Source of the DNA: Yuukianura sp. NJ FZ-2021
Lineage: Eukaryota
Assembly: GCA_046563655.1 (NCBI GenBank)
Contig: CM102283.1
Span: forward strand, 248,001-312,000
Length of the DNA stretch: 64,000 nt
Reading direction: 5' to 3'
Made by a program: the position numbers and the translations under genes. Positions 1,701 to 62,023 of the stretch are shown piece by piece. How positions within the stretch are numbered: position 1 is the first letter of the stretch; each line of letters starts with the position of its first letter. The notes under the pieces were generated by a model. The model saw nothing but the letters and a program-made list of their open reading frames with translations, had not been told where the DNA came from and did not search any database.

Positions 1701-2094
1701 AAATGTTCTGGTTGGTTTTAGTTTTTCGAGGTTTGTGGTTGGTTTCGGTTTTTTCCCATTCTCTATTGAATCCCTCTCCTGCTGTGTCTTAACAGGGTAA
1801 ATATGGAAATGGATGGAGATTCAGCGCCGCTGGAAGTCTGGCTCAGGTGGACGTCCACAACTCAAAACCTTAAGAAAAGATGAAGGAAATGGAAATGAGA
1901 AATAAGAAAACATTTTTTGAAAAACATATTTGAAAGGGGCCTTTTGTTTCATTTTTGTTTGATTTAGGACGCCTTGACTAAATACAAATTAAAATTTCAA
2001 CGAGGAAGTGGACATGTTGTGGGTTTTAGAAGAAAATAAATTCTAAAAAGTCATTCCCAAATGCACATTTTCTCTTCCTCTGTATTTTACTTGT

Positions 2095-2749
2095 GGTTAG
2101 ATTGTCGTTGTTGGGGCAGTGAAAAGTTTTTCTGTTTTTTTGGTCAAAATTTTCGAAAAATTTTTTTTTCGTTTTTTTCACTTTTTATCATGTTTCAAAC
2201 GTTTTTGGAACGTTTGGAGCAAAAAAAATTTTTTGACCCTAAGGGTCCCCCCTTCCCATTTTTTTGAAAATCTTGACTCGAAAATTTTCAAAGTACGAAA
2301 ACTGAAGTGGTCACCCCTGACAACCTCAAAAATGACCCTTACGAAAGTTGTTTAGAATCATGAGGTGAGTATTTTTTGTCCTAAGGACTATGACCCTACG
2401 ACCACTCCCTGAGATCAGAGGTCAACACAAAGAAAAATTGGGGAAATGTTCGCATTGACCTCTGACCTCAACGAATGGTCGTAGGGTCATAGTCCATAGG
2501 ACAAAAAATACTCACCTCATGATTCTAAACAACTTTTGTAAGGGTCATTTTTGAGGTTGTCAGGTGTGACCACTTCAGTTTTCGTACTTTGAAAATTTTC
2601 GAGTCAAGATTTTCAAAAAAATGGGAAGGGGGACCCTTAGGGTCAAAAATTTTTTTCTTAAAAAGTGAAAAAAACGAAAAAAAAATTTTCGGAAATTTTG
2701 ACCAAAAAACAGAGAAAATTTTCACTGCCCCAACAACGACAATTTAACC
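2095..2749. mobile_element. Fold-back MITE with long inverted arms and 8-bp TSD (Merlin-like)
   Basis: GGTTAGATTGTCGTTGTTGGGGCAGT...ACTGCCCCAACAACGACAATTTAACC, ~300-bp arms. TTACTTGT directly repeated at 2087-2094 and 2750-2757. Confidence 0.85.
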
Positions 2750-2777
2750 TTACTTGTTTTGGAAATGGAAATATTGG

Positions 2778-3460
2778 GGTTAGATTATCGTTGTTGTGCT
2801 AGTTCAAATTTTTTCTAAGTTTTTTGGTCAAAATTTTCACAAAATTTTTTTTTCGTTTTTTTCACTTTTTATCACTTTTCAAACGTTTTTGGAACGTTTG
2901 GAGCAAAAAAAATTTTTTGACCCCAAGGGTCCCCCCTTCTCACTTTTTTGAAAATCAGGAGTCGAAAATTTTCCAAGTACAAAAAACTGAAGTGGTCACA
3001 CATGACAACCTCAGAAATGACCTATGAAAGTTGTTCGGAATCATGAGGGGAGTATTTTTTGTCCTATGAACTATGGTCCTACGACCACTCCCTGAGGTCA
3101 AAGGTCAACGGAAAGAAAAATTGGGGAAATGTTTGTGCTGACCTCTGACCTCAATGAGTGGTCGTAGGGTCATAGTCCATAGGACAAAAAATTCTTCCCT
3201 CATGATTCTGAACAAGTTTCACAGGGGTCATTTTTGAGGTTGTCAGGGGTGTCCAATTCAGTTTGCGGACTTGGAAAATTTGTGAGTCCAGATTTTCAAA
3301 AAATGAGAAGAGGGACACTTGGGGTCAAAAAATTTTTGCTCCAAACGTTCCAAAACGTTTGAAACGTGATAAAAAGTGAAAAAACGAAAAAAAATTTTTC
3401 GAAAGTTTTGACCAAAAAACTTAGAAAAATTTGAACTACCCCAACAACGATAATCTAACC
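2778..3460. mobile_element. Second fold-back MITE of the same family, 8-bp TSD
   Basis: GGTTAGATTATCGTTG...CAACGATAATCTAACC. AATATTGG at 2770-2777 and 3461-3468. Confidence 0.85.
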
Positions 3461-5459
3461 AATATTGGAATGGTTTTACAAATGTAAAGATCAAAATCCT
3501 GTTTTCTCTGTTGGGTTACGAATCTAGCATTAGCATTCCTCAATTTTAGAAGTTAGTTAGAGTTTAGAAGTATGATTAAGTTATACAAAAATGAGGAAAC
3601 GAGATACATGTTTTTTTTGTCAAAGAAATGGTAACCAGATTCACAAAACCTAAACGTTACTTTTTGTATTTTTCTTCTTTTTTCTTCCTGTTTTGTGTCT
3701 CCAGATCCGAGGGGAGATTATTTTTTTGAATAGCCCCCAGCCACCTCCCAACTAGTGGCTTGGAATCTCTGTGATCTTAAAAGAGCCAGTTCTAATCTGT
3801 ACATGTACAATCTCATCCTGCTGACAATTCCCTCGGAACTAGTTGTCTCACTTCCTCACTCCAAAACCACTTTACAACATAACTTTAAACTAAACACTCC
3901 AAAAGTTTAATAGAAATATAATATAAGTTCTTTAGATTTTAGTGTTAGAAATGATGAGAAAAGAGTTTAAAAGAGACAGCTACAAATTGCGGAGAGAAAT
4001 TGATAGGTGTTTTAGGAGAAAAAGTAATTAGGAGAGGACGATAGAATGCCATGGGGGCACATTAAACCAAAACTACAAAACTAATCACTTCCACTTCACC
4101 CGAAACACCACTTTCTTGCTTCCTAATTCCATTCTAAATCAGAAACTTCACATTTGTATCTTCACTTTCCCTGGATCTTAAACTTTTCAGTATAATTTCT
4201 TAGTGCCCTAATTCCTGGCCTACAAGTTGCGACTTATCTGAGAAATTCCGAACATTTTTGAAAACAAATTTTTTTTTCGCTGAAAACTAAAGAATTTTGT
4301 TAAAAATTTGCCGGAATTGCCGGTAAATGTTTTAAATCCTATTAAAACGGGTTTCATCTAATGTTAATTCATCAAATCCAGCATTTTTGACACGGTTCTG
4401 GTGTCTGGCGAATCAAATTTGCACGAATTCGTGCATAATTAAAAGATGTTTTGAGGAAACTGGGAATAATTTTACTTTCACTAGGTAACTCGGATTTTTA
4501 TAATTTCTTTCTGAAAAAAATTAACCTAACCTACCAACATTGTTTAAGCCCTTTAAAACGTAACCGAGTTAAGTTGTAAGAAAAAAAATTTACATGAGCC
4601 CTTATGGGGACATTTCAATTTTCAAACTTTTTTAAAAATTTCAGTTTTTGAGAGTATAGTAAAAAAAATATATATATTCCTGGTCAGGGGAGTAGATATG
4701 TAGACATGATCCAGACGCCAGGTGCTAAAAGCATTAGGCGGGGAAAGGAGGGGGAAGGGAAAGGTGACGTGGGAGGTCCCCCCTCCCTTGAGGTATTAAA
4801 GGAGAGCCCACGGGCAGTGTGTGGATATACCCACGTATCATTATGTGTAATACCAGCGGGCTATAGATTAACCACCCCACATAGTATGTTGCAAATTTCA
4901 TCAAAAATGTTTCTTCAAGTTCGAATTCCATTCCAAAACATATTCTACGAGATGACGTAATTACACATTGGTCAACACTTGTAGTAGTACTTAAACAGGG
5001 AGTTTTGAAAATAGCAATCTCAGTTCTGAAGTCGAAGCTGTAACATTCCTTTTCCATATTAGTTCTCGAGAGATGGAAGAGGTGAAGCATGAAATTGCTC
5101 TCCGAGTTAGAGGTATCCCGTGGAATAGACGTCCAAAAAAGTGTCCTGGATTTTATATATTTCCAATTTGTTTGCAACAAAACTTGTCGATGTTTAAAAT
5201 TCACGAAGAGTACAAAGCGCTTCCAGTTACTCGAATATGTGATCACACTCGATGTAATTACAGTGGTGAATACGACTACTTGATCGAAAAACTATTTGGA
5301 GATGGAGTATTTAAACCAGCTGATTTGGAGGAAATTATGGACGAAATTTCCCGGCTCCGAACGTTTAAAAATACTATTGCAAATATATGCAATGTTGTGG
5401 ATTCGTTTTGCGAAAGGGTAATGCTGCAACAGCCGAACCATATTCCCTAGTTCCTGGAT

Positions 5460-6038
5460 ATGACTTTTCTAGAAGCAAGGAAGCTCCTTACACCTTACCA
5501 TGTAATGGCTGGAAGTGGAATTTATAAGGTTGACAAACTTGTAGCAGACTTGCACAATAAGAAGAACTACATCCTCCACAGTGAAACTCTAAGAGAATAC
5601 TGCAAGCTGGGTGTGAAAGTCTCCAAAATTCATCGCGTACTTTCATTTAGACAAGTGGCTTGGATGAAGCCGTTCATAGATTTTAACACTGAGATGAGAA
5701 AAAAGGCTACGAGCGACTTTGAAAAAGACTTCTGGAAATTGCTAAACAATTCTGCATTTGGAAAAACAATTGAACAGGTTCGTGATAGACAAAACGTTCG
5801 AATTGTTACAGACAGACAAAAGGCGTTGTTCTATAACAAAAAACCTACTGTACAAAATATTGTCGTTGTGAATGAATCTACTTGTTTGTTTATGATGAAG
5901 AAAAAATCAGTCAACCTAAACAAACCAATTTTCACCGGTGTTGCAATTTTGGAAATTGCCAAAAAAATAATGTACGAAATGCACTACCAAGGAATTAAAA
6001 CCCTCTACGGGGATCGAGAAGTTTTACTCTATACAGAC
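5460..6038 (+). pseudogene. Protein-primed family B DNA polymerase fragment (Polinton pPolB)
   Basis: WMKPFIDFNT...EKDFWKLLNNSAFGKT, LNKPIFTGVAILEIAK..MY, LLYTD. Homology stops inside the YTDTDS motif at an LTR, and the N-terminal exonuclease region is absent. Confidence 0.9.
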
Positions 6039-6557
6039 TGCAACAACCCCGCAGTCCCTGAGACCAAAACTGTGATTTCCTCTACAGGGAAATCTACAGT
6101 TCAGGTCGAATCTTCCTGGAGAGAAGATTTGACCTGAGGTCAACAATACTTGGTTCTCCTAATGTGCCAACATCAACTGAGAAATGAACTGGTCGGAAAC
6201 AACAAAGTGAACTAATGGAATAAACTTTTATTTAGGTGTTCACTTGTTGAAGGTTGGGAAGAGACTCCCGCTACAGAAAAATGTGAAAAAGAATATTTCT
6301 GTATCCTATCTCGAGAACATAGTCCTACTACTCTACCTATTCCTGGCTACTCGGTTTCCTCCGGAGTTCCGAATCCGTCCTTCGTCAGTCCTTCTCCGCT
6401 TCATATTGCGCCCGGGAAATGCGCCTCCATCAGCGCGACCCTCATGCACGGTCCTCCGACCTCGACCAGCGGATACAATCTTCGTCTTCTTGTCGCCTCG
6501 TTTCCACTCCACACGTCTGGAATTAACAAAACAGCATGCAGAATTTCCAGATTGACA
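6039..6557 (-). mobile_element. Putative 3' LTR (519 bp) of a retrotransposon inserted into pPolB
   Basis: Minus strand: purine tract AAAAGAAGGGAGAAACTTAAGAAGAAA, then TGTCAA...GTTGCA, with an internal AATAAA. The edge coincides with the pPolB break. No partner LTR is present. Confidence 0.6.
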
Positions 6558-8330
6558 TTTCTTCTTAAGTTTCTCCCTTCTTTTGACATTCATTTTATGA
6601 GTCAAAGGATTTCTCTTTTCTGGACGTTGTTCAAAATAGATTTGCCGGTTTTGTTTTCTATTCAGAGTATTCCTTGCGTCCGGTTCTTGGTTGAATTTAG
6701 GACAATCGTGTCTGTTGTGCCCGTTTGAAAAACAAAGATAACAAACAAGTGAATCTTTGTAACTTGGCTTTTGAATTGATGCAGGAACTGTCACCACTTG
6801 TCTCTCGTTTTGTTGGATGCTGATCTGCAACTCGTCAGTTAGATCTTCCATATCCTCGTCAGCATGAATCTGCAGATATTCTGTCAATGATGGAAGCTGT
6901 ACAGTAAACGTTGGTTGGATGTCGGTTATTACGTCTTGTTGTGCCGGTTTAGTTTGAATTAAAGTGACGTTTCGACTGCTTGTCACTTTCGTTGGTTTGT
7001 CCGCACTTTGAGTGTTGTTGACACTTTTAGCAGAAGACGGCAATGACTTTGACCTCTTGTCATCTTCTTTAGCAGCGATGTTTCGAGTAGTGGTCACTTC
7101 CATTGGTCTCTCAACAATTTCAGTAGTTTTGTTACTTCTAGTAGACGTTGGTACTAATTTAGACTGCATGTCATCTTTCTTGTTACTTGCATTGGAATCC
7201 TTCTGTGAGCCAAAGAAGTAGTTGACTTTTTGTTTAAGTACATCGTAGTTGTACTTGTCATACTTTCTAGTAATTTTCACCAGATCGTCAGCTCGTTCCC
7301 ATGCCATTGAATTTTTTCGCAGAAAATCTTGAATTCCTGCTTGATTGTGGGATCTTGTGGTACGAATGGGGCAGTTGTTTGCCAATTCAAGTAAAGTTGT
7401 ATCTGACATGATAAATTTCGGTTCCACATTTTTCCTTTTGGCCAATTCTTGTCTCCATTTGTACAAGTCATCAAACAAACTGCTTTGACTGACAATTGTT
7501 TCACGAACTTTGACGACTGTGTAAATCTCCTTATTATAGTTTGCAGTATATCCTTTTTCGAATGTTTTCTTGTTTCTTGCAATCAAAACCCTGTCTCCCT
7601 CATAGAATTTTGAAGGTGTATATAACACAATTCGTTCTGGATATAGCGTATTGTACACTTTTGCTTCGTTTGCTTTTGTGACTTCGTTTGGCTTCATTTT
7701 TATGCTGCGATGATACGAATTGTTGTATAAATTTTCAAAATCATGAAGTTTATTTACAAATCGCTTGGTGTTATTGTGTGTCATGTAGCGTTGAATTTTT
7801 TCAAACAATGTACGAATGAATCTCTCGATGACAACACTTTTCAGAGGCGAATAACTCCAAAACAGTTTGATTCCTAACCCGCTTATGTATTTTTCCATCG
7901 TTTTGTTTAAGAACTCTCCGCCCTTATCAACATTTATTCGTTTTGGTATGGCACCGCTTCGTTGAAGAATTTTCTTTAAAGCGTTTGTTACAGTCATAGC
8001 AGTCTTATTTGGTATAGCTTCAATCCATGCTTGCTTGGAAAAAGCGTCAATGATGACGAGGAGGTACTTTTTTTTGAAGTTGTAATTTGCAAATTTTCTA
8101 ATATCCTTCAGATCCATTGCGTATTGTTCATGTATTTCGTTGGAGTAGACCCTACGGCTCAAAAATCGCCGTGTCACAGGGTAATGCAAGGTGTAGGCGG
8201 GCACTGACTTTAAACGCTACTGTGCAATTTTCCGTCTCGCTTTACCCCCCTTGGGCAAAAAGTGTGACAGTCCGCTAAAGCTGCCAGAGTTCTCCAAATT
8301 CCTCCAACGCTCTGTCACCTTCCTTTCCAT
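6333..8330 (-). CDS. Chimeric ORF: Polinton rve integrase (DDE core) fused in frame to retroelement-derived HRDC + CCHC zinc knuckle
   Basis: AMDL / NVDKGGEF / VIERFIRT triad and FEKGYTANY, then LYKWRQELAKRKNVEPKFIMSDTTLLELA (HRDC) and CYLCFSNGHNRHDC. The in-frame ATG at 8330 is followed by a TAG at 8217-8219. Confidence 0.8.
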
Positions 8331-8393
8331 GATCAAGAGTGATAAAAGCTGACAGCGCAAAGCAATATTTAATCAGTCAGAAAGCAGTCAGAC

Positions 8394-9050
8394 ATGGAAT
8401 TCGACTATCGTCTTCGACGTCCATTTGTGATGACGTGTGCAGGACCTACTCAGGCTGGAAAATCAACGCTAATTGAGGAACTGATAAGAAGAAAAGATGA
8501 ACTAATATTCCCAAGGATTGAGAAAGTTATATTCTGTTACAATGAGGATGAACCTGCTTTTGCAGACAGTTTAAAGAAGCAGCTCGGAGACTCACGCATA
8601 CATTTCCAAAAAGGAATTGTACTAGATGTTGAGGAAGGAAACAAGACTCCCACTTTAGTAGTTCTAGATGACTTTATGGAAGAAGCATCCACATCCAAGG
8701 ACGTTTGCAGCATGGTAACACGAGGTTCCAGCCACGGCAACTTCAGTGTTATTTTGACGCTGCAAAACTTCTTTTACAAAAACTGTCGTACTTTGACTCT
8801 AAACAGCAAGTACATTGCACTATTTCGAAATCCCAGAGACACAAGCATCATCAATTATCTTAGCCGTCAAATGAATGGAGGCAAGGATCATCCAATATTA
8901 GCAGCGGCATATGAAGATGCTACCAAAAACAAGCCAAATAGCTATCTATTTTTAGACATGTCCCAACAACAAAATGATGAACACAGAATACGCTCTGAAA
9001 TATTTCCAGATTCAACTTGTATTGTTTATTTACATCGGAAAAATTATTGA
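8394..9050 (+). CDS. Polinton DNA-packaging ATPase (A32/FtsK-HerA type)
   Basis: Walker A GPTQAGKS, Walker B LVVLDDFM, SVILTLQNFF, LFRNPRD. Intact, 218 aa. Confidence 0.92.
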   Translation: MEFDYRLRRPFVMTCAGPTQAGKSTLIEELIRRKDELIFPRIEKVIFCYNEDEPAFADSLKKQLGDSRIHFQKGIVLDVEEGNKTPTLVVLDDFMEEASTSKDVCSMVTRGSSHGNFSVILTLQNFFYKNCRTLTLNSKYIALFRNPRDTSIINYLSRQMNGGKDHPILAAAYEDATKNKPNSYLFLDMSQQQNDEHRIRSEIFPDSTCIVYLHRKNY

Positions 9051-9641: not shown

Positions 9642-9897
9642 ATGTCTGAGAAGATTAAGTCCAACAAACGTTTTTTAAAATACATTTCCAGTTGTACACC
9701 GGCTCAGCGAGAAGCGTTATTACGTCATGCCACCCCAGACGAGATAAAGAGTCTTTGTGAGTGCGTCATGAATGCGTACCGCAAAAACGTTTCCCTAACA
9801 CCATCTGTCGTTGCTAAACTCAAACCGTTCCGTGGCACAATAACGAAAATTGCAAGGTATCCAAAGCAATCAATTCGCAAACAAAGATTGCTTTTAA
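9642..9897 (+). pseudogene. Small conserved Polinton protein, truncated by piggyBac MITE
   Basis: Nearly identical to 38482..38811 up to the TTAA at 9894-9897. Confidence 0.75.
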
Positions 9898-10333
9898 CCT
9901 TTTCGCGACGGGGTCATTAGAACCGAGTGCGTTTGTTGGACGGGGGACCCATTTTGGGGTTCTCCCTACTCGTACATCTCAGACGGGTAACCAAATCGTA
10001 GACTGATTCCACCAGACGGGGGCTCTTTTTCTAAGCAACAAATCTCATTACAGTCTCTACCCATCAATCGAATCTCTCATTTCAATCACTATATTTATTA
10101 AATAATATTATTATGTATTATATAATATTAAATAATATTATACGTTATATTATACTCTATTATATATGTTATATAATATTACATAATATACTACATATTA
10201 CATATATAGTATGTAATAGAAAAATACAGTTATATAATAAGCATATAATATAATAACATTTTATTATTATTATATTATATATAATATAGTGTTATGATAT
10301 TATATGCTCATATATTATAACATATATGATATA
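9898..10333. mobile_element. Partial piggyBac-type MITE
   Basis: TTAA followed by CCTTTTCGCGACGGG. Reverse-complement match to the right half of 54249..55167, including the AT-rich core. Confidence 0.85.
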
Positions 10334-20324: not shown

Positions 20325-22003
20325 CTACTGGCGAAGCGTCGTCTTGCGTCTGTGTCGGTTACGATGGTGGGAAAGCCGTCTACGTCGATTCTCTTGCTGT
20401 CGTCTTTGGAGGGTGGAATTGATGAATCCCTTCCTGGCAGTCGGGTTCGGACAAGTACTGTGCTCGTGTGAAGTGTCGTGACAAAGGTAGCATCTTCTGG
20501 TGCTGATTGGTGCATCGGGAAGTGGAATTTCTGGAAATATGTCCGGCTCATCATCATAGTTCACATGGATTTCAATGTCTGGTTCTGTAGCTTGCATGTC
20601 AACATCAGGAGCTTGAATCGGCGAAATGATTTTTGGTTCTGGTACAATATGGTGTAAATTGGGAGTTGGTTCATCAGCTTCAGATTCCGTTTCTGGTTCT
20701 GATTCAGGAGTTCGTTTCTGGTTCACGACCACGATTTTACTTCTGATTTGGACATTCAAGTCAGACCAACTATCTTCGCTATCGTCGTCGGTGCTGACGT
20801 ATGATGGTGCTCTGGTTAGTGGTGCTGGAATGTTGGCGATTACATGGTAAACTTGAGCGATGGCGTCACAGATTTGATTTTGAATTTCAAGTGAACATTT
20901 GTAAATCTTAACTACGTCTTTTGGACATGAAGGAGCCACTATGGCTAAAGTTCTCATTTGATCGAATGTCATAATCCAATGTACTTGTTTGTCTAGAATT
21001 TTTGCCTGATTAAGTGCCCATTGGTACAATTTGCTAAAAATACACTTCTGAATTTGATTGAGTGCTTGTGCTTGCTTGCCTAAAACAATTTCTACCGTTG
21101 TTTTGTCACACGCACGGTACATTTTTAAAGATTTCTCCATAGATACTAGGAAAATTGGTAATTTTGCTTCTAACTTATGTACAAAGTCTAGTTGAAGGTC
21201 GCTGCCACTCGCTGCGTCCTTCCTTTTCTTAACACATTGATTCCAGATTAATATCAAACTATAACTATCATACCAAGCATATCTGAACAAATCCTGTGGT
21301 AAACGACTGAGCTTATCTCTCACTGTCCAATCTGCTGCTTGAGCATCCTTTGACACCTCTACATCAAGTAAATATTTACACATCGTGGAAAGTGAAGTAG
21401 CTTCAAATCTAGCGTCTACACCGAAAAATAACATATGATACAATTCTTGTAAGTCTATTATAGGGAAAATGAATATGTCAAAGTCACGCTGCGTCTCATG
21501 AGTTAATCATTGTCGCTGCCAACTAGAATTTTGCCAATATTCGTACAACAAAAGATTTTTGGGAGATTCTCCTTAAGCCAATTACAAATCGGGGGAACAT
21601 CTATCACAAAATCATGATCCTCTACTGAAATTTGAATAATAGTAATGAAATCTTTGTAACACTTAGTCTGATGAAACTCCACATCTACAAAAAGTAACTG
21701 TTTCTGAAGTAAAAACTCTAACATCTGATCTGCATGATAACTAGTCTTAATCCAGTGATGAGTTCTAAAATCTGGTACTTCTAATTCTCTAAATAATGAC
21801 AAATCTGGGTTCCAATTACGAATTTGATTCTCAAAGGGGTGTACTCTTGGAATTTTAGGCTCTATAGCAAAATTTACATTCTGTCTCATCTTTAAGAATT
21901 CGGGATACAAATCTTACGGTCTAGCTTCTACGGACTTCCATTTCAATTTAGCTTCTTTCTGTGCTAGTTTCCATTTCTGAGCCTGTCTCTGCTTGCTATT
22001 CAT
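20325..22003 (-). pseudogene. Rrp6/EXOSC10-like DEDDy 3'-5' exoribonuclease + HRDC + CCHC knuckle (retrotransposon extra ORF)
   Basis: HPFE; ExoI FVDVEFH; IIQISVEDHDFVID; ExoII VGSDND..QRDF; ADWTVR; ExoIII YAWYDSY; HRDC LYQWALNQAKILDKQVHWIM; CYLCHDTSHEHSTC. One stop (~21914) and one frameshift (~21495). Confidence 0.85.
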
Positions 22004-22224: not shown

Positions 22225-23880
22225 TTATGTCCTAAATCCTGCTAATTGCCTGTAGTTTACTGGTTTTCTGTCTCTGAGCTGTCGTTTTTCTGGTTCTTCT
22301 GGCATTTCTTCTGGAATTTTGATTCGAACTGTCTCGGTATCTCTTGGAAAATATGGTTTTAAGTCACTGACGTGTCTAACTCCTGCTAACTCTCTTTCTG
22401 GATAAGTACAAATTTGAAATGTAACTGGAGTGACTTGTTTGACAATAACATAAGGTCCTATCCGCTTTGGAGCTAATTTTTGAGCTATACCTTCGTCTTT
22501 GTTAGATTGTACTCTGTTTCTAGTCAAAACAAACTGATTTTCATCAAACGAAACTTCTCTACGATGTTGATCATAGTATTTCTTGTATGTAGCTTGAGCT
22601 TTGTCAATATTCGTTCTGACCCAACTAATTAGATTCTTTAAGTACTGATTTAATTCAATTGCATGAGACTCTGGTAACTCGAAATTTTCCTTTTCTGGTT
22701 CTGAAATTTGTCTGTCGAACGGCAAACTAATCTCACGACCTAAGTTTAACATTGCTGGTGTTACTTTAGTACTTTCGTTACAGACTGTTCTTATTGCAAG
22801 TGCGAATTTTTGGATATGTAAATCCCAACTCGAATGTTGACAGTCTACAAATGCACAAATCATTGCTTTAATGTTTCTATTTATCCTTTATGCTAAATTT
22901 GGCTGGGGATGGTACACTGCGATGAATCTATGGTCGATATTCCAAGCTTTACAACATTTTTTCATTAAATTAGACAAAAATTGAGATCCGTTGTCTGTGA
23001 TTATCGTTTTTGGACTTCCGTACCTGCAGAATACGTGATCCTCTAAACAATCTACAATCTTTTTAGCCGTTGCTTCTCGTAACGGAAACATTTCTGTCCA
23101 CTTTGACAATTGGTCGACTAGAACTAACAAATACTCATTTCGTCTGCCTCCTGCAGTAACCGGAAGTGGACCAATTAAATCTGCATAAATGACTGAGAAA
23201 ACCTCTTTCGCTGCTCTAATAATTCCCATAGTCCCTGCGGGTTTTAAGTTATCATATTTGACTTCCTGACAAACTTTGCATGTTTTAACGTAATTTGCTA
23301 TATCTTTGTTCATGTCTGGCCAATACACTCTGCTTTGAACTCTGAATTTTGTTTTTCTGACCCCTGGATGACCTGAATGAGGTTCATCATGTAACTCTTT
23401 TAGAACCAAATTTCTGAGACTTTTAGGCACAACAGGTAAGTACAACTTAACTCTATCCTTAACACTATTCTTATCTCTATTCTTAACACTAATCTTAACA
23501 CTAACGCTAGCTTCGTCTTCGTCTGTACGTACTTTCTTTTCGGAACGAGGAGCATCTTCGCATCCCACATTGTTCCTTACGAACGGAGAGCTCTTCGGCA
23601 TCCCACATTGTTCTTTTAGACGCTCTTGGTTCTTAGGGCTATCTACCCTTTTTGCTCTACCAGGCACTGCCGCTGGGAGTCTACCTAGGCCTTTCTCTTC
23701 GGTATTCTGTACAAAACAACTTTCGTTTGTAGAACCGATCTGTGGATCAACTCTGTCCACTTGTGGGGTCATGCTACCCACTTTGCGCGTCCGCAAACTT
23801 CTATTTTTCTTTGTGTGCACTATCCTAAACAGGATTCCATCTTTTATAACATAATTTTCTAAATTGCATGATTTTTTAAC
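22225..23880 (-). pseudogene. Ty3/gypsy pol fragment (integrase)
   Basis: HHCC finger (HDEPHSGH...CKVC), ADLIGPLP, TDNGSQF, YHPQPN, GPY motif. Stop at 22888. Confidence 0.92.
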
Positions 23881-25122
23881 CCTTTTTGTTACTTTATTAT
23901 TCTAGTAACTTTATTAAAATAAAAACTTACGATTTCATATTGTTCTAGAGCCCAGTTTTGAATTGGGCGGACATCAAACCCAGTTCCCATACTTCGGAAG
24001 AAACTGTTTTGTTTCTAATAAAAAATTAAATAGTTATTCTGTTGCAAGAAAATGAACGAGACCAACACCCAGGTAGTACATATGTACGTGGTACGTATGT
24101 GCTACTTGGGTGCAAAGCTTGCAGATTTTTTTACAAAACCCTGCGCAAACTCTGACACCTTATTGCAACCATACTCATAATCTTCGACAGCCAACTTAAA
24201 CCTAACCTAATAAAAACTTATTGTGTTACACTTACAGGTGTTCTTCCAAATTGTTTAGTTTGGATTCCTCTTCCATTCAGTACTGACTTCCGGCTCTTTG
24301 CTTTCTAAACAAAATAACAAACAAATTTTGAGATGAAAGCGTAAAAAAAAATAACAGCAATATCAAGACATAGTAACAATCAATGTTAGGTTAAGTCAGG
24401 TTACACTTACAGGAGTCCCACCAACTTGTTTAGTATTGCATCCTCTTCCTTCCTGTACTGAGTTCTGGCCTTTGTTGTTCTAAGCAAAACGACAAACAAA
24501 TATTAAAATGAAATCGTAACAAAAAATAACACCAAATTAAAAAATACTAACAAAAACATCAAAAATAAGATCCTCAACCTTATGTTGTACATGTGAAATT
24601 GTGTAAACATTAAATAAAAATTTGAACTGTAATAAAAATGTTATTGGTACCTTGTGGTTTTGTAGTTTGTTTTGTAGTTTCAATGCTTGCCATTTTTTCC
24701 CCATTTTTAAACTAAACGTATTAAAGCTTCTGCAAAATTTATTAACTTTCTTCTTAAAATTCTTTCTCAGCAACTGGGGAGGGTAGGGTATACGATTTAG
24801 TATTAGTTGGTTATTGTCGTCGAATGGCTTATAGCATTTTTTGTCATCTTGTACTAACGAACGGATGACAATAAACCAAAAGTGTGCAAGCAACTTTTTT
24901 GCAAGTTGAAGTTATATCCTTTGGTTCAGAGAACCGAAAAGGCGTCGTGTCAGTTCAACACAAAGACAATCAGACTTGGATGGGAAATTGACAGACTGCA
25001 TTTTTTGCCATCAAGTCATAAATACCTGTGGCAACTTGAGATTTGCTGCAGGCAGTAGTGGCTTACAGCCCTCATCAGAGAAGCCATTGCTTCCGAGTTT
25101 CGGGATCCAATTTGGTTTGGAC

Positions 25123-26461: not shown

Positions 26462-27720
26462 GTGAACAACTTGAGTACTTAAATGAAAACTGTTCACTAA
26501 TTATTTAGTGAACTACTATGTTCACAATTTATCTACTTACATCACACTATGTTCACTAGTTATTTAGTGAACTAAAATGTGTGAACTTGACTACGAAAAT
26601 CACAAATGTTCACTGATTAGTTAGTGTACCACCAATGTGTTCACGAGTTTTATACTTACGACTCACTTTGTTCACACGTTATTTAGTAAACTAAATATGT
26701 GTGGACAACTTGATTATGAAATTACAAAATGTTCACTAATTATTTAGTGAACTACTAATGTGTCCACAAGTTATCTACTTAGCTTACACTATGTTCACTA
26801 GTTATTTAGTGAACTAAATAATTGTGAACACCTTGACTGCTAAAATCACAAAATGTTCACTAATTATTTAGTGAACCACCAATATGTTCACAAATTATCT
26901 ACTTACCTTGCACTATGTTCACTAGTTATTTAGTGAACTGAAATATGTGTGAACAACTCGACTACTGAAATCAGAAAATGTCCACTAATTATTTAGTGAA
27001 CTACTATGTTCACAATTTATCTACTTACATCACACTATGTTCACTAGTTATTTAGTGAACTAAAATGTGTGAACTTGACTACGAAAATCACAAATGTTCA
27101 CTGATTAGTTAGTGTACCACCAATGTGTTCACGAGTTTTATACTTACGACTCACTTTGTTCACACGTTATTTAGTAAACTAAATATGTGTGGACAACTTG
27201 ATTATGAAATTACAAAATGTTCACTAATTATTTAGTGAACTACTAATGTGTCCACAAGTTATCTACTTACCTTACACTATGTTCACTAGTTATTTAGTGA
27301 ACTAAATAATTGTGAACACCTTGACTGCTAAAATCACAAAATGTTCACTAATTATTTAGTGAACCACCAATATGTTCACAAATTATCTACTTACCTTGCA
27401 CTATGTTCACTAGTTATTTAGTGAACTGAAATATGTGTGAACAACTCGTCTACTGAAATCAGAAAATGTCCACTAATTATTTAGTGAACTACTAATGTGT
27501 CCACAAGTGATTTAGTGAACTGAAATATGTGAACAACTTGACTAATGAAATCACAAATGTTCATTTAAAATTTAGTGAATCACCAATGTGTTCACAAGTT
27601 ATCTACTTACATCACACAATGTTCACGAGTTATTTAGTGAACTAAAAATATTTACAAATTATTTAACAAACTAAATATGTGTGAACAACTTCGTTATCGA
27701 AATCACAAAATGTCCACAAA
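26462..27720. repeat. Tandem satellite: ~61-bp hairpin monomers, ~122-bp dimers, 488-bp higher-order period
   Basis: Core GTTCACTAA-TTAT-TTAGTGAAC. Registers recur at 26491, 26979 and 27467. Confidence 0.9.
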
Positions 27721-28642
27721 TTATATTTAATTTAATTTAATTTCCAGGTGCGTCTACACTTGTACACTTCAGTATTGAGCCAAGTTGAGTTCAAGTTAAA
27801 AAGTATGTAAAATAATTATTTGTCAAGAACGTTCCTTAACCCAGTTAAGAAAACCAAGAATATGTCCGAAAATATTTACTAAAAACCAGCAAAGTATTTA
27901 ACTAGATACAATATTTACTGAAAAAGGGCGGAATGTTTATGAACATTACGGGCATGGGTAGCTAAATAAACCTAACCAATTTGCTTGGGTCATTTCACTC
28001 ACAAAAAATTTCTAAAGTAAATTGGATTCTGTATCTTTATTATAGCCCAGGCATTTTTCAAACATATTTTCTTATTTGAATTTTCATTTTACTAGTCTAG
28101 AAACACAAAATTGCCGCCAGCAACGATAACTCGACGCAACAGGGAAAACAGGAGTGAGAAATACAACGCTAACTACGTCAGAACAATGGTGAAAAAAAAA
28201 ACATCTCGCCTTAAGGCCTGTTTATACCGTACCTCTGGATGGATTTTTCTTCCACTGGACGCCAATCCAGTCGTTCATACCAGATTTGCTTTCTCTGGAT
28301 GGATCATCCAGAGAAAGTTTGGGTGAATTTTTTATCCATGGATGGATTTCCGTCCGTTCACACAAAAAATTCCACTGGATGGATTTTTTTTCCACTGGAT
28401 TTTCCTGTAGTGCTGAGAGATGGGAGAAACGATCCAGACCAAAAGTTCAACCTCTTGAACTTTTGCTCTGGATTGAGCATGAAATTTGTTTCACTTTGCC
28501 CCAATCTCACACGGGAGCGCGAAACAGAAGGTTTGAAAGACAGGACAAGTCACATTTTAAAAAAGTGTTAAAAAAATAGAACCACATAAAATTAGGACCT
28601 CACTTTAGAGACTTATTTAGTTTTACTAAAAACTAAAAGTAA

Positions 28643-34879: not shown

Positions 34880-35398
34880 TGCAACAACCCCGCAGTCCCT
34901 GAGACCAAAACTGTGATTTCCTCTACAGGGAAATCTGCAGTTCAGGTCGAATCTTCCTGGAGAGAAGATTTGACCTGAGGTCAACAATAGTAGGTTCTCC
35001 TAATGTGCCAACATCAACTGAGAAATGAACTGGTCGGAAACAACAAAGTGAACTAATGGAATAAACTTTTATTTAGGTGTTCACTTGTTGAAGGTTGGGA
35101 AGAGACTCCCGCTACAGAAAAATGTGAAAAAGAATATTTCTGTATCCTATCTCGAGAACATAGTCCTAATACTCTACCTATTCCTGGCTACTCGGTTTCC
35201 TCCGGAGTTCCGAATCCGTCCTTCGTCAGTCCCTCTCCGCTTCATATTGCGCCCGGGAAATGCGCCTCCATCAGCGCGACCCTCATGCACGGTCCTCCGA
35301 CCTCGACCAGCGGATACAATCTTCGTCTTCTTGTCGCCTCGTTTCCACTCCACACGTCTGGAATTAACAAAACAGCATGCAGAATTTCCAGATTGACA
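34880..35398 (-). mobile_element. Putative 3' LTR, copy B
   Basis: Matches 6039..6557. Confidence 0.6.
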
Positions 35399-37171
35399 TT
35401 TCTTCTTAAGTTTCTCCCTTCTTTTGACATTCATTTTATGAGTCAAAGGATTTCTCTTTTCTGGACGTTGTTCAAAATAGATTTGCCGGTTTTGTTTTCT
35501 ATTCAGAGTATTCCTTGCGTCCGGTTCTTGGTTGAATTTAGGACAATCGTGTCTGTTGTGCCCGTTTGAAAAACAAAGATAACAAACAAGTGAATCTTTG
35601 TAACTTGGCTTTTGAATTGATGCAGGAACTGTCACCACTTGTCTCTCGTTTTGTTGGATGCTGATCTGCAACTCGTCAGTTAGATCTTCCATATCCTCGT
35701 CAGCATGAATCTGCAGATATTCTGTCAATGATGGAAGCTGTACAGTAAACGTTGGTTGGATGTCGGTTATTACGTCTTGTTGTGCCGGTTTAGTTTGAAT
35801 TAAAGTGACGTTTCGACTGCTTGTCACTTTCGTTGGTTTGTCCGCACTTTGAGTGTTGTTGACACTTTTAGCAGAAGACGGCAATGACTTTGACCTCTTG
35901 TCATCTTCTTTAGCAGCGATGTTTCGAGTAGTGGTCACTTCCATTGGTCTCTCAACAATTTCAGTAGTTTTGTTACTTCTAGTAGACGTTGGTACTAATT
36001 TAGACTGCATGTCATCTTTCTTGTTACTTGCATTGGAATCCTTCTGTGAGCCAAAGAAGTAGTTGACTTTTTGTTTAAGTACATCGTAGTTGTACTTGTC
36101 ATACTTTCTAGTAATTTTCACCAGATCGTCAGCTCGTTCCCATGCCATTGAATTTTTTCGCAGAAAATCTTGAATTCCTGCTTGATTGTGGGATCTTGTG
36201 GTACGAATGGGGCAGTTGTTTGCCAATTCAAGTAAAGTTGTATCTGACATGATAAATTTCGGTTCCACATTTTTCCTTTTGGCCAATTCTTGTCTCCATT
36301 TGTACAAGTCATCAAACAAACTGCTTTGACTGACAATTGTTTCACGAACTTTGACGACTGTGTAAATCTCCTTATTATAGTTTGCAGTATATCCTTTTTC
36401 GAATGTTTTCTTGTTTCTTGCAATCAAAACCCTGTCTCCCTCATAGAATTTTGAAGGTGTATATAACACAATTCGTTCTGGATATAGCGTATTGTACACT
36501 TTTGCTTCGTTTGCTTTTGTGACTTCGTTTGGCTTCATTTTTATGCTGCGATGATACGAATTGTTGTATAAATTTTCAAAATCATGAAGTTTATTTACAA
36601 ATCGCTTGGTGTTATTGTGTGTCATGTAGCGTTGAATTTTTTCAAACAATGTACGAATGAATCTCTCGATGACAACACTTTTCAGAGGCGAATAACTCCA
36701 AAACAGTTTGATTCCTAACCCGCTTATGTATTTTTCCATCGTTTTGTTTAAGAACTCTCCGCCCTTATCAACATTTATTCGTTTTGGTATGGCACCGCTT
36801 CGTTGAAGAATTTTCTTTAAAGCGTTTGTTACAGTCATAGCAGTCTTATTTGGTATAGCTTCAATCCATGCTTGCTTGGAAAAAGCGTCAATGATGACGA
36901 GGAGGTACTTTTTTTTGAAGTTGTAATTTGCAAATTTTCTAATATCCTTCAGATCCATTGCGTATTGTTCATGTATTTCGTTGGAGTAGACCCTACGGCT
37001 CAAAAATCGCCGTGTCACAGGGTAATGCAAGGTGTAGGCGGGCACTGACTTTAAACGCTACTGTGCAATTTTCCGTCTCGCTTTACCCCCCTTGGGCAAA
37101 AAGTGTGACAGTCCGCTAAAGCTGCCAGAGTTCTCCAAATTCCTCCAACGCTCTGTCACCTTCCTTTCCAT
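35174..37171 (-). CDS. Integrase-HRDC-CCHC chimeric ORF, copy B
   Basis: 623-codon ORF differing from copy A by one residue (R/G near the C-terminus), with the same upstream TAG. Confidence 0.8.
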
Positions 37172-54248: not shown

Positions 54249-55167
54249 CCTTTTCGCGACGGGAAGCCCAAAAAGTGGCTTTGGCTTGCCCGTACTCACA
54301 GACGGGGTTGACAGAACCAAAGTGTGTTTTCTGGACGGGCGACCCAGAAAAGGGCTTTCGTTCCTGTGCATCCCTGGACGGGAGTCCCATAATAGGGTTT
54401 TCATATGTTTAAGCCTGCTTATTGCTTTTCGCTTGTGTCGTACTCTGCGCTTATTACTACCATCGTGTAGCCCCATCTGTTGTGACAATTTTTTGTTTTT
54501 ACGCGGTTCCAAAATTCCACTGCCTTCTCATTGAAAATTGGAGTTGATTTTATTTTGTGCTTTTTCTGGAGAGATTTTGGACGTTTCGGTCTGTGCCGTT
54601 TGTAATTAATCCTGGATCCGAATTGTTTTTATAGGACCAAAATCAATTCTTGAGATAATTTAATAACATGTAATATATATGTTATTAAGCCATGGCATAT
54701 ATATTATGTTATTATATGTTAACATATATCATATATGTTATAATATATGAGCATATAATATCATAACACTATATTATATGTTATTATATAATATAATAAT
54801 AATAAAATGTTATTATATTATATGCTTATTATTTAACTTTATTTTTTTATTACATACTATGTATGTAATATGTAGTATATTATGTAATATTATATAATAT
54901 TACATAATATACTAATATATTATATAATATCAAATAATATTATATAATACATAATAATATTATTTAATAAATATACTGATTCAAATGAGAGATTCGATTG
55001 ATGGGCAGAGACTGTAATGAGATTTCTTGCAAAGAAAAAGAGACCCCGTCTGGTGGAATCAGTCTACGATTTGGTTACCCGTCTGAGATGTCCGAGTAGG
55101 GAGAACCCCGAAATGGGTCCCCCGTCCACCAAACGCACTCGGTTCTAATGACCCCGTCGCGAAAAGG
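54249..55167. mobile_element. piggyBac-type MITE, complete (919 bp)
   Basis: TTAA TSDs at 54245-54248 and 55168-55171, 15-bp TIR CCTTTTCGCGACGGG. Confidence 0.92.
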
Positions 55168-55312
55168 TTAACTTTTTTCTCAAGGTCAATCGAGCATTTT
55201 GAGATTGTCAAGTCCCGGGAGCCCTTTTCTGGGATCCCGGGACCAAGAGGATCAAGTATGGTGCATGGGCAGTATTTTCGGCTGGTCAGAGGATTAGTTG
55301 GGTGCCACTCGT

Positions 55313-55416
55313 GCCAAAACAAACCGCTAACCACTTCCGGTTAGCCTGCCAAAACAAACCGCAAACCACTTCCGGTTAGCCTGCCAAAAGAAACCGCAAA
55401 CCACTTCCGGCTAGCC
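55313..55416. repeat. 35-bp minisatellite (3 units; 4th unit at ~62030-62058)
   Basis: GCCAAAA(C/G)AAACCGC(T/A)AACCACTTCCGG(T/C)TAGCCT units, interrupted by the BEL element. Confidence 0.85.
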
Positions 55417-58400
55417 TGTTGGAGCATGAAGCATCAATTTAATTTAGTTAAGACAAACAAACATTTCTTAGATTAAGTTATTCATGTGAGCAGAGAACAT
55501 TAGTTGGTTAACCCAAATGATGGTCTCTGCCGATCCGCAGCAGCGGACTCTGCGTTAAAAATATCAATTCCAAGGTTCTTATTTATAGTTTCTTAAGATT
55601 CATTCTTACAATTTTGCATTCAGTTCTCTTTTACCTGTCGTTCGGAACAGTCTTTCTTTTTACCAATCTCATTCGATTTAATAAACCAGTAAAGAAAGTC
55701 TACAGCTCCACATTCAACATTCATACCAGTTGAGGTCAACGAGGTCATCTAATGAACTGCTAGTTTGGAGCATCACATTACTGTCTAGTCACAATTCACT
55801 TTCAGTCTGCCATCATTCACGCTCTCCCAATAACGTGCATCCCTTTCGCACATTTTTTGGTGCCGAAAGACGGTTTCTCATCGTGGGATTGTGCTTCAGT
55901 TTGTGGAAAATTCAAACTACTATTCAGGTCAAGTACCTAAAGTGTGTTGTGCTTAACTTTCATTCGACCCCTTCAGCATGTCGGACATCTTGGCCCTTGT
56001 GCAGAAGCGTAACGCCCAAAAGGCAAGGCTCTCGAAGATTCTGAAGGATGTGCATAATTAAGCTCTGACACCACTGACCTCGTTTACGTTACGTGAGCTA
56101 CTTGAACAAACGAAATCCGTGGAGGCAAAGATCTTAGCGATTCAAGACGCAATCATTGGGTATGTGACCACAGAAGAGGACTTATCGCCACAAGTAGAAG
56201 CTATGGATGTCATCGACGACATGATTATCAGAATACGGTCGTTGATCAACGAAACGCTGGTGTCAATGACCCCTTTGGCGGATCCTTCATCTCAAGGTCA
56301 TTCATCTCAATCGCCACCGCAGCCACCATCAGGTCATTCAACTAAGGTAAAACTACCTAAGCTCGATTTGCCTACGTTCAGCGGGAAGTTCGAAGACTGG
56401 ATCCAGTTCAAAGATCAGTTCGAAGCTTCCATTGGAAACAACTCATCCCTTAGTGGCTGCGAGAAGCTCCAGTACTTGAAGTCAGGGTTGAAGGATGAAG
56501 CTGCTCGCCTTATCGATCCATTCGCATTAACCAACGCTAACTTCAAAGAAGCATGGAAACTGTTATCGGAACGGTATAGTAATCTACGTGAGATATGCTT
56601 TTCTTTGATTAGAAAGTTGATGGGAATTCCCAAGGTAACTACAGAGAATGGTAATGGCTTACGAGTCCTCGTAGACACTTTTGATCAATGTTGTAGACAG
56701 CTTAGCAATTTGCAAAGGAAGGTCAATGACTGGGACGATCTCCTTCTTATCATCCTTCTGGACAAACTGGATGCAGACACGAAGCGAGAGTTTGTCAAGG
56801 ATTTAACGAGAACTGATATGCCGTCGTATGACTCACTCAAGACTTTTCTTGATAGTCACATCAGAGGACTGCTCGCATCAGCCACCACAACAAACAAGGG
56901 AAAGGACTTTAGGTCTGCCGAAGGTCACCGTAAGCAATCATGTTTCTCGTCTTCCAACAATCGGAATTGCAAATTGTGTCCAGGATCGGACCATCCTCTA
57001 CACCAATGCTCAAAGTTCAACAAACTAACAGTTCAGGAACGGATGAACTTTGTGAAGGCAAATGGTATGTGCTTCAACTGCGTTGGTGAATCACATTCGG
57101 TAAAAACTTGTAAGTCAAATCGTAAATGCAAATCATGCGGTGGATCTCACCATACCTTGCTGCATTTGGGATCTCAAAGTTCAACAGGGAATGTAGGTTC
57201 ATCTAACAATCAAGGTCAAGGCGGCTACTTTGGCAGTTCAGGTTCATCAACCTCAAATCAAGTTCCAAGTAGTCGATCGACTAACACCGTGTCAAGCAAC
57301 CACACAGCGGGGAGAGGTGTACTCCTTGGTTCTGCAGTGATCAAGGTACAGGACTCCACCGGTGGGACCAAGCAGTGTCGAGTACTCCTGGATCCTGGAT
57401 CAGAGGCCACTTTTATCACTGAAGCATGCGTAAAAAAGTTGGGTCTGACCAGATCACGATGCGATGTCACTGTCAACGGAGTAGGAGCAACTCAAATTGG
57501 TAAAGCAAGGGGTCAGGTTGCGCTGAATTTATTTTCAAATTTTAATCAATTTTGTGCACCTGTCCAAGCTCTAATCATGAACAAAGTCGCAGGCAACCTA
57601 CCGTCATTCTCTTCCGGTGACACTTGGAAGGAATGGACACACATCCAGGATCTCATTCTTGCAGATCCACAATTTTACGAGCCAAGGGAGATCGAAATTC
57701 TTCTGGGAGCATAACACAAAAGATTTTTACTTGCAGAAGAGCCATTGGCAAGGATGATCAGCCAATCGGCTGCTCCAGCGAATTCGGGTGGGTCATCATG
57801 GGCCCCGTGAACACGCTGCCAGTGTCAACTTTCACCGTACAGACCCACACTGTCACACTTGAGCAAGCAGTGTCGCGGTTCTGGGAATTGGAAACTGTGC
57901 CCAGCATCCAGCATTTGACGGAAGAGGAGAAGGAGGCTGAATGTCACTTTGCCTCTCATCATTCAAGGGACTCAGAAGGGAGATATGTCGTGCCTCTCCC
58001 CTTCAAGTCCAACATCCGAGATCTCGGAACCTCCAGGGACATCGCCCTGAGGCGTCTCAACCAAGTGGAGAGGAGACTGGCAAAGTTTCCTGAACGTAAG
58101 ACTGAGTATGTAAATTTCATGAAGGAATATTTAGCACTGAATCACATGGAGGAAGTTCCTGCCGAGGAGTACGGTGACCAACATATCGACGGATCCGTCG
58201 CTTCCTGCTACCTTCCTCACCACTTCGTCACCAAGGACGATAGCACAACAACGAAACTAAGGGTTGTCTTCGATGGGTCCTGGGAGACAAGTTCAGGTTT
58301 GGCATTAAACAAATGCCTAATGGTGGGACCAACCATCCAATCGGATATATTTATTCATTTGGTAAAATTCAGATTTTATCCAATTGTAATCAAAGCTGAC

Positions 58401-61400: not shown

Positions 61401-62023
61401 GACCCGTAGTGCGTGGCGAGAGGTCAAGTAAATTGGGCCACTCTTAGTTTTGACGGAGTTGAGGGCTATGCTTCGCGCTGCCCTAGAGCTCTCCCGACTC
61501 GTCACCGCGCTTGGGATCCAAAGATGAGTGTGAGGGCACTTAATTTAAACTTTAATTTTTTCTGACACCATTGTGTCAGGGGCGTGGGCATGTTGGAGCA
61601 TGAAGCATCAATTAATTTAGTTAAAACAAACAAACATTTCTTAGATTAAGTTATTCATGTGAGCAGAGGACATTAGTTGGTCAACCCAAATAATGGTCTC
61701 CTGCAGATCCGCAGCAGCGGACTCTACATCAAATATCAATTCCAAGGTTCTTACTTATAGTTCTTAAGATTCATTCTTACAATTTTACATTCAGTTCTCT
61801 TTTACCTGTCGTTCGGAACAGTCTTTCTTTTTACCAATCTCATTCGATTTAATAAACCAGTAAAGAAAGTCTACAGCTCCACATTCCACATTCATACCAG
61901 TTGAGGTCAACGAGGTCATCTAATGAACTGCTAGTTTGGAGCATCACATTACTGTCTAGTCACAATTCACTTTCAGTCTGCCATCATTCACGCTCTCCCA
62001 ATAACGTTCATCCATTTCGCACA
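55417..62023 (+). mobile_element. Full-length BEL/Pao LTR retrotransposon
   Basis: LTRs 55417..55852 and 61591..62023 (TG...CA), 5-bp TSD TAGCC, PBS TGGTGCCGAAA at 55858 (tRNA-Phe-like), purine-rich tract before the 3' LTR. Confidence 0.95.
55978..61168 (+). pseudogene. BEL/Pao gag-pol polyprotein, disrupted near 56060, 57710 and 58720
   Basis: DUF1759-like gag, three Cys/His knuckles, protease LLDPGS, RT KLRVVFD / FFVDD, RNase H HGFSDAS / PRLELCGA, integrase GVDYAGP / SDCGSNF / GGIWE. Confidence 0.93.

Follow-up and report, generated by a model that had tools for sequence, protein, structure and literature searches.

A third open reading frame with an Rrp6-like exonuclease in Ty3/Gypsy retrotransposons of the springtail Yuukianura sp.

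Retroelements rarely keep captured host enzymes. The closest described case is that of the bdelloid rotifer LTR retrotransposons Juno and Vesta, whose third open reading frames (ORF3s) encode RNase D-like DEDDy proteins, of unknown function according to the available portions of the original description (Rodriguez, Kenefick, Arkhipova 2017, PMC5408684). In these ORFs the DEDD residues are changed to DEED, and the ORFs are closer to one another than to cellular enzymes including Rrp6; they were gained at least twice and are shared between element types, among them Athena/Terminon (PMC5408684). The word HRDC is absent from the text of that paper. Later reviews, in the sections available, mention only DEDDy or DnaQ-like cargo and cite Rodriguez et al. 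for it (PMC6431247, PMC6338049). In the literature covered here, most of it outside subscription journals and outside Repbase, no report of an Rrp6-derived ORF3 with HRDC and zinc knuckle was found, and none in springtails. DEDDy ORF3s as such are already known from the rotifer elements; the Rrp6-derived variant with HRDC and knuckle is new.

For the cellular enzyme, Wasmuth and Lima delimited residues 128-516 of yeast Rrp6 as its catalytic module, and the accessible parts of their paper state that RNA binding is highest in a form without the exosome-binding region in which the basic lasso is retained, and that this form also surpasses the catalytic module in poly(A) degradation (PMC5314766). 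Yeast Rrp6 devoid of its C-terminal domain is described, in a source likewise available in part, as still processing RNA 3' ends (PMC2588529).

Here, we analysed a window of 64,000 nucleotides from Yuukianura sp. NJ FZ-2021 (assembly GCA_046563655.1, contig CM102283.1, positions 248,001 to 312,000 of the forward strand), the coordinates of which are used throughout. It holds a dead piece of a retroelement, which marks a real and lineage-wide gene. Almost certainly, this piece is a remnant of a Ty3/Gypsy clade whose ORF3 goes back to one ancient capture of the Rrp6/EXOSC10 catalytic module (N-terminal arm, DEDDy exonuclease and HRDC). PMC2NT was not taken over in this capture, and the module was extended by acidic linker, CCHC knuckle and basic tail.

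The remnant and its probable Polinton host

Both peptides quoted by the original prediction are present on the minus strand, in a frame of 627 codons (8216-6333), which is a chimera of a Polinton integrase part and an ORF3 tail part. In this frame, Pfam places an integrase core at residues 34-118 (E 1.9e-12) and HRDC at residues 245-283 (E 2.6e-10), and it matches a zinc knuckle weakly at residues 491-507. The ORF3 part (6333..7493, minus strand; about 96% identity to the ORF3s of the full-length elements L021-L023) is the 3' portion of the gene, the exonuclease part with its DEDDy residues being deleted. It comprises the Pfam-matched part of the HRDC (7368..7484, minus strand; PF00570, 40.5 bits, over the curated cut-off), a low-complexity linker defined from the sequence, S/T-rich and then acidic (6744..7223, minus strand; pI 4.8 across the 130 residues preceding the knuckle in a full-length copy), a CCHC zinc knuckle of the form C-x2-C-x4-H-x4-C (6702..6743, minus strand; zf-CCHC_2, E 0.02, under the cut-off) and a basic tail (6336..6701, minus strand; pI 11.6 in the full-length copy). 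The HRDC proposed for this remnant is thereby confirmed.

The 3' LTR has 365 bp and TG...CA ends (6039..6403, minus strand) and occurs in pairs in all eight two-LTR copies of this family (family A) that were examined, each with a 4-bp target duplication. The idea that the frame crosses into a TG...CA unit was correct in that the ORF3 stop (6335-6333) lies about 70 nt inside the LTR; the frame ends there, and the unit is 6403..6039. An LTR of 6039..6557, as formerly assumed, was never found as a pair, all 8/8 two-LTR copies defining 6039-6403, and the purine-rich stretch near 6560-6590, previously read as a polypurine tract, encodes part of the basic tail. The end of the feature has to be moved from 7497 to 7493, where retroelement similarity ends, 7494-7497 belonging to the Polinton integrase gene. 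A second copy of the remnant is located at 34880..36334 (minus strand) within a 28.84-kb tandem duplication, with 5 mismatches in 1455 nt and identical junctions.

The surrounding arrangement of integrase, polymerase and ATPase is what we take to be a Polinton, the polymerase and capsid labels coming from motifs and gene order, with no Pfam match. The integrase gene (7494..8216, minus strand; rve), its 3' end deleted, is joined in frame to the ORF3 remnant, the junction being set by the empty-site copies L164 and L165; a premature stop near the start of the gene (8217..8219, minus strand) is found in both tandem copies. At the other end, a fragment of what is presumably, by its motifs, the protein-primed DNA polymerase (pPolB; 5451..6038, plus strand; no match in a Pfam search of this fragment) is cut at the insertion site; its frame runs 142 codons further in the empty-site copy, and the convergent polymerase-like frame of the window spans 5451-6137. 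A packaging-type ATPase completes the context (8373..9050, plus strand; AAA_14 E 1.6e-4, Adeno_IVa2 E 0.003, Pox_A32 E 0.018, all under the cut-off). The Polinton host, the in-frame integrase fusion and the loss of the cassette in inserted derivatives (see below) had been missed by the original prediction.

L164, a third tandem copy upstream of the window, and L165, a sister Polinton on a different contig, carry 742 bp of Polinton sequence where the window carries 1455 bp of retroelement. From these empty sites it follows that a Gypsy element inserted into the polymerase gene and that a deletion came afterwards. Lost in this deletion were the 5' 7.8 kb of the element and 742 bp of Polinton sequence, so that both Polinton genes lack their 3' ends; no microhomology was seen at the join, and the unit was duplicated afterwards. 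Since the join keeps the reading frame, which stays open in both tandem copies, the 627-codon integrase-HRDC-CCHC fusion could be regarded as a new functional gene, which we consider very improbable: one third of joins are in frame by chance, the tandem copies differ by only 5 nt and there has therefore been no time for selection to show, and the 7493/7494 junction is absent from every other match in the genome search. Because the premature stop (8219-8217) precedes the join in both copies, a chance join is the simplest account and the fusion probably is a dead accident. Together with the empty sites, this stop makes a domesticated integrase fusion unlikely.

Full-length elements, families and ancestry of the ORF3

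Searching the own genome at the DNA level with the remnant (27 matches from 22 candidates scored) recovered two-LTR elements, as the original prediction had expected, eight of which were examined. Three loci (L021-L023) match nearly the entire query at about 96% and are full-length with 9.25 kb; the other five are deletion derivatives of 4.6-5.9 kb. TG...CA ends are present in all of them, and the LTRs of a pair are 95.9-100% identical (96-99.5% in the full-length elements). In L021, a gag of 548 codons is followed by a pol of 1197 codons in the order protease, RT, RNase H, integrase (Pfam) and by an ORF3 of 696 codons from stop to stop, containing DNA_pol_A_exo1 (E 7e-25), HRDC and knuckle. 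L022 is similar in coding content, and L023 has a shorter frame and has lost the first catalytic Asp. As foreseen for full copies, 3/3 of the full-length elements encode gag-pol and have the DEDDy domain ahead of their HRDC. After the 5' LTR, at the position of a primer-binding site, there is a conserved TGGCG-type site, presumably of the tRNA-Arg type; one pattern search for the primer tRNA gene gave no match. A canonical polypurine tract beside the 3' LTR is absent in families A, F, G and H and purine tracts are present beside the LTR in families C, D, E and K of the same lineage, which leaves the Ty3/Gypsy placement by pol unaffected. The source of the remnant is a Ty3/Gypsy LTR retrotransposon with three ORFs.

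An exonuclease-HRDC query, which very diverged ORF3 copies may escape, gave 39 matches from 45 candidates in the own genome. They include the host Rrp6, which contains introns; the remainder form about eleven groups (A-K) of low-copy families, with 1-9 loci each. In A-H and J, ORF3 lies directly behind a Gypsy pol that is 40-50% identical to the family A pol, K consists of gag and ORF3 without pol between LTRs of 99.6% identity, and family I has no pol nearby. The knuckle was found in 9/9 own families listed and a basic tail of pI 10.1-11.8 in 21/21 ORF3s examined. An integrase search (125 matches from 144 scored) showed ORF3 at 24 of the 30 best loci among these matches, the six loci without it being four family A and two family J derivatives; it was further present in one of three additional clade members checked and in none of eight more distant Gypsy elements (0/8). 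The claim that the captured exonuclease cassette is a maintained feature of the lineage is borne out by these counts together with the congruent trees and the purifying selection described below, and it applies to more families than originally predicted.

Family B also resides in the window. Its ORF3 (20328..21913, minus strand) has the order exonuclease-HRDC-linker-CCHC-basic tail, is split into two frames with a break at about 21503-21506, matches PF01612 and PF00570 (the latter, for the HRDC, with E 0.0094 and under the curated cut-off) and groups with the ORF3s; the 3' part of pol with the integrase (22225..23888, minus strand; Integrase_H2C2, rve, SH3_Tf2-1) contains an in-frame stop. In the integrase tree, this family branches off before all other ORF3 families of the genome; a search for an LTR pair at its C5 copy found none. 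CCHC knuckle and basic tail were rightly predicted to be common to families A and B (both C-x2-C-x4-H-x4-C; blastp E 6e-5). It was also correct that the family A remnant shows no evident similarity to family B at the nucleotide level (blastn, best E 0.36). The predicted old age holds for the split between the families but not for the copies, the remnant being 95.5-96.4% identical to the full-length elements and their LTR pairs being highly similar.

Outside this genome, the closest named pol is that of Orchesella dallaii (54%), and a pol gene model of O. cincta ends in an exonuclease fragment. The metagenome contig L084 carries an integrase and then a complete ORF3, being the one locus out of 80 with pol beside the exonuclease in a metagenome scan; L090 is ORF3-like, with no pol on its 2.2-kb contig. 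Among the best 150 results inspected from a HMMER profile scan of 1.84 billion representatives, 14 proteins combine the exonuclease with the strict knuckle pattern, and about 25 more have neither PMC2NT nor the strict knuckle. The 14 include two models from O. dallaii, in one of which the SH3 tail of an integrase is fused to the protein. Word-indexed homologue searches returned only Rrp6 and RNase D and not the ORF3 family, the ESM Atlas only Rrp6/RNase D clusters (best score 0.89), and no named rotifer sequence was returned by the homologue searches and the profile scan. In a sister group, a short ORF3 has a weak gag-like N-terminus (PNMA, E 0.006), a knuckle and a basic tail, and no nuclease. 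Judged from this architecture, it may be the scaffold that received the Rrp6 module; the sequence homology shown between sister and nuclease ORF3s is confined to the knuckle and a short motif. Unrelated elements of the same genome contain exonuclease-like ORFs without catalytic motif.

The best PDB matches of the ORF3, both by sequence (E 8e-28 for the single sequence) and by fold, are Rrp6/EXOSC10, with a profile match of 3e-53 versus 9e-24 for RNase D, and 25/25 ORF3-like rows score higher on the Rrp6 profile. An AlphaFold model covering ORF3 residues 40-400 (mean pLDDT 84) aligns with its residues 1-357 to yeast Rrp6 128-516, with Z 31-33 and an rmsd of about 4 over about 340 aligned residues, and to RNase D only from model residue 55 onwards (Z 23.6). 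ORF3 and Rrp6 have the arm motif [RK]PQ..N..HP in common, a loose form of which was seen in 34/48 ORF3-like rows and a stricter one in 19/24 canonical rows. The catalytic residues D, E, D, Y and D are invariant in 10/10 families, and the Exo I and Exo III motifs are intact in 21/22 long copies. The position of yeast D457, which we take to contact the N-terminal arm, is Asp in nine of the ten families and Asn in family A. On these grounds ORF3 is predicted to be a 3'-5' exoribonuclease. For PMC2NT there is no Pfam match in ORF3, and positions 1-170 of the Rrp6 profile found no match in 21/21 ORF3s. We infer that the exosome-associating region is probably missing too, noting that the structural alignment stops at yeast 516-520 because the model ends there and that alignments to the Rrp6 profile continue into the low-complexity linker for a small gain (about 9 bits in family A).

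ORF3 is about 34% identical to the host Rrp6 over the exonuclease part and has none of the introns of the host gene at matching positions, which would point to a capture through mRNA. Structure and profiles, as well as the tree, rule out an origin from RNase D. In a carefully built tree, with 39 rows selected out of 83, the 21 ORF3-like rows are united in a single clade (100/100), which lies within canonical Rrp6 (98/97) and does not include the host Rrp6. In a quick tree of all 83 rows the ORF3 group is less supported (SH-aLRT 91) and is placed beside, not inside, most canonical Rrp6, with one long RNase D row pulled into it and two rows of the PMC2NT-less set placed elsewhere. The ORF3 branches are long, and the position within Rrp6 is therefore insecure; a recent capture from the host Rrp6 is ruled out, the host enzyme grouping with canonical Rrp6. 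In the integrase tree, all ORF3 families and the Orchesella sequences form one clade (99/93). The groups F+H, F+H+G+J and L084+(C, D, E), with B outside, recur in the ORF3 and integrase trees, between which no supported conflict was seen, arguing for a single capture and inheritance together with pol.

Selection, dispensability and possible function

Estimates of dN/dS by Nei-Gojobori, to be read as coming from small samples of non-independent pairs, are low for the exonuclease: 0.11 in family C (0.07-0.17; 7 copies), 0.13 in E, 0.18 in A, 0.10 in F, 0.06 in G and 0.14 for F versus H, dS being saturated in the D-E comparison. The HRDC region gave 0.09-0.37, and knuckle and tail 0.11-0.24 in C, E and G, with intervals reaching 1 in A and F; the linker is indistinguishable from 1 in family A and lies at 0.15-0.29 in C, E, F and G. 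As controls, gag gave 0.14 and pol regions 0.03-0.27. The ORF3 exonuclease is under purifying selection, a pattern which is repeated across families. The loss of the exonuclease in several derivatives could suggest a neutral passenger, or several captures from the host; both are hardly credible, since the dN/dS intervals lie far under 1 and the ORF3s form one clade separate from the host Rrp6, with congruent trees.

Two family J derivatives, at two sites, show the same clean loss of ORF3 with an open gag and a pol of 1248 codons, and in one of them the LTRs are 99.6% identical and a target duplication is present. In family A, derivatives lacking the exonuclease and parts of pol outnumber full copies 5:3. 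ORF3-less elements appear only as terminal derivatives. Since such derivatives still inserted, ORF3 is accessory and not essential in cis; a single round either can do without it or can draw on protein provided in trans.

In 6/10 ORF3s a candidate splice acceptor is located no more than 30 nt from the start codon, the remaining 4/10 having no obvious acceptor next to it, and ORF3 might thus be translated from a spliced subgenomic mRNA. The product would be active as a 3'-5' exoribonuclease, having lost the docking to Rrp47 and to the core of the exosome, and would reach RNA by means of its knuckle and basic tail, which would play the part of the lasso of Rrp6. It would act in trans and blunt host RNA silencing, possible targets being the precursors of small RNAs or else those sliced and antisense intermediates whose 3' ends are unprotected. 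A role in trans against silencing is suggested because ORF3 is unneeded in cis for an insertion yet is selected in the long term, and the silencing RNAs of the host are favoured over the element's own RNA because an accessory gene can be shared and the element has its own RNase H. For this whole chain, up to an RNase that works in trans and independently of the exosome on the silencing RNAs of the host, we would put the probability slightly below even. Mature piRNAs are methylated at the 3' end and should resist such an enzyme, and one family A copy without the first catalytic Asp counts against an active enzyme. A product shared in trans also invites cheaters, so that long-term retention would need cis preference or an advantage in new hosts. 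The wider scenario, in which a springtail-associated Gypsy clade turned Rrp6, a host nuclease that degrades transposon RNA, into an exosome-free, knuckle-guided RNase suppressing piRNA/siRNA silencing in trans, the module being grafted on an older type of ORF3 with a knuckle, still seen in the sister group, is tentative.

Such a cis preference would be inherent if ORF3 acted on the element's own RNA: recruited to the RNP or particle, it could trim the 3' ends of primer tRNA, of poly(A) or of what RNase H leaves over, to the benefit of reverse transcription or strand transfer. The nucleocapsid-like CCHC knuckle and basic tail, conserved in C, E and G, and the missing canonical purine tract at the 3' LTR of A, F, G and H are in line with this, and 3'-end processing was proposed for the rotifer DEDDy ORFs by Rodriguez et al., in the part of their text available (PMC5408684). 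Yet the ORF3-less and tract-less family J derivatives inserted at least twice, possibly borrowing the protein, families C, D, E and K carry ORF3 despite their purine tracts, and RNase H is already encoded by the element; action on its own RNA is possible, if doubtful. The low copy numbers (1-9 loci) would also suit a self-limiting or host-benefiting factor, which degrades excess element RNA or the RNA of other parasites so that carriers are tolerated. Exosome-mediated decay is reported, in the portion accessible, to be part of Piwi silencing in Drosophila (bioRxiv 10.64898/2025.12.16.694471), and other accessory domains have been suggested to serve in host defence (PMC6338049, likewise available in part). 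As ORF3 is found almost only within elements, and ORF3-less elements should outcompete self-limiting relatives yet are seen only as terminal derivatives, we regard this as unlikely. Still less probable is a mimic or competitor of the host Rrp6/exosome pathway with secondary nuclease activity: the whole surface of the Rrp6 catalytic module is kept, and the exonuclease-like ORFs without catalytic motif in unrelated elements would fit, but the catalytic residues of ORF3 are invariant and PMC2NT is missing.

Comparison with described systems

The lineage has kept the Rrp6 catalytic module through more than 50% divergence of pol, and the Rrp6 pathway is one that helps to silence transposons. If ORF3 indeed suppressed piRNA/siRNA silencing in trans, it would be a transposon-encoded counter-defence nuclease in an animal. 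Families with and without ORF3 in one genome make the role of third ORFs other than env testable.

The RNase D of Trypanosoma brucei (PDB 7c42-7c4c) likewise joins a DEDDy exonuclease to a CCHC, but it is the weaker match (Z about 22, covering model residues 44-258 only, with neither arm nor HRDC in the aligned part) and probably is an independent combination. With three-ORF elements of the Ty3/Gypsy group (Metaviridae), the elements described here share the order LTR-gag-pol(PR-RT-RH-IN)-ORF3-LTR, overlapping gag and pol frames, the 4-bp target duplication and a candidate spliced ORF3; unlike in those, the ORF3 is a nuclease and not an envelope protein. With Rrp6/EXOSC10, ORF3 has in common arm, DEDDy exonuclease and HRDC in one module, equivalent to yeast 128-516, as well as a basic C-terminal tail, and it differs in lacking PMC2NT and a recognisable exosome-associating region, in the added CCHC and in being intronless. 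This natural construct of catalytic module and basic tail without PMC2NT resembles the engineered yeast Rrp6 with raised RNA binding and decay. As in Juno and Vesta, a DEDDy 3'-5' exonuclease occupies a third ORF behind pol, in the place of env, in Gypsy-like elements. Compared by description with the rotifer ORFs, the ORF3 found here is derived from Rrp6 with arm and HRDC and has a CCHC and a basic tail in addition, its acidic positions are D, E, D and D in 10/10 families in place of DEED, and after a single gain it was passed on with pol under purifying selection. Unlike for the rotifer ORFs, each of these points, the origin, the vertical inheritance and the purifying selection, can be demonstrated here.

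Nested elements and repeats in the window

Nested mobile elements form a unit of 25-29 kb, of which at least three tandem copies are present (window 1-28830 and 28831-48851, and G000:C1:219001-248000, which lies before the window); they are 98-99.5% identical and distinguished by insertions, and the upstream copy (G000:C1:219001-248000) is devoid of the family A remnant. Within the polymerase region, a putative Polinton fragment, lies a 530-bp repeat (window 4988-5517), which has many genomic copies at 83-86%, often paired at a spacing of 4.6-5.4 kb. The window further contains a nested palindromic repeat array (2091-3466), a satellite with a 62-bp unit and a higher-order 488-bp repeat (26462-27724) and a BEL/Pao element (56062-61168) in which the gag and pol frames are long and the LTR-like repeats (55414-55853 and 61588-62024) are 95.7% identical. 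A pair of 440-bp inverted repeats (9894-10333 and 54725-55171; 92%), separated by 44 kb and with AT-rich inner repeats, possibly represents the termini of a DNA transposon.

The end of pol and the flank of the 3' LTR

In the Gypsy clade bearing ORF3, the third frame with an Rrp6-type exonuclease, a conserved basic 'NYR-LAG' motif terminates pol (for example, window 22225-22260), both in the families of this genome and in most clade matches; it is not present in the two outgroup matches shown. Families A, F, G and H, as well as the family J derivatives, have no canonical polypurine tract 5' of their 3' LTR; a GC-rich stretch takes its place (for example, window 6404-6450).

Derivatives of the ORF3-bearing families and other elements

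Family K (L077:3344-9632 in element orientation; also L075) consists of gag and ORF3 flanked by 269-bp LTRs of 99.6% identity; pol is absent and the ORF3 reading frame is broken in both copies seen (L077, L075). Two derivatives of family J (L226, L227) retain open gag and pol and have cleanly lost ORF3, a loss common to both. In a 2.2-kb metagenome contig (L090), an ORF3-like exonuclease, HRDC and knuckle are spread across two frames, which adjoin a transposase-like fragment rather than pol.

Degenerate exonuclease-like frames, which may or may not be related to ORF3, were also observed alongside envelope-like sequences: one is the final ORF (427 codons, without the D-x-E motif) of a distant Gypsy (L223, L225), whose pol is ~30% identical to that of family A and which bears a long env-like ORF; another (L221, L224; 533 codons) is located in a related envelope-like cluster, with no pol in view. 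A sister Gypsy group (L207:1188-1928, also L215) carries a short ORF3 without exonuclease, in which a weak gag-like N-terminus is followed by a Pro-rich linker, a CCHC knuckle and a basic tail, and its integrase is 41-43% identical to that of family A.
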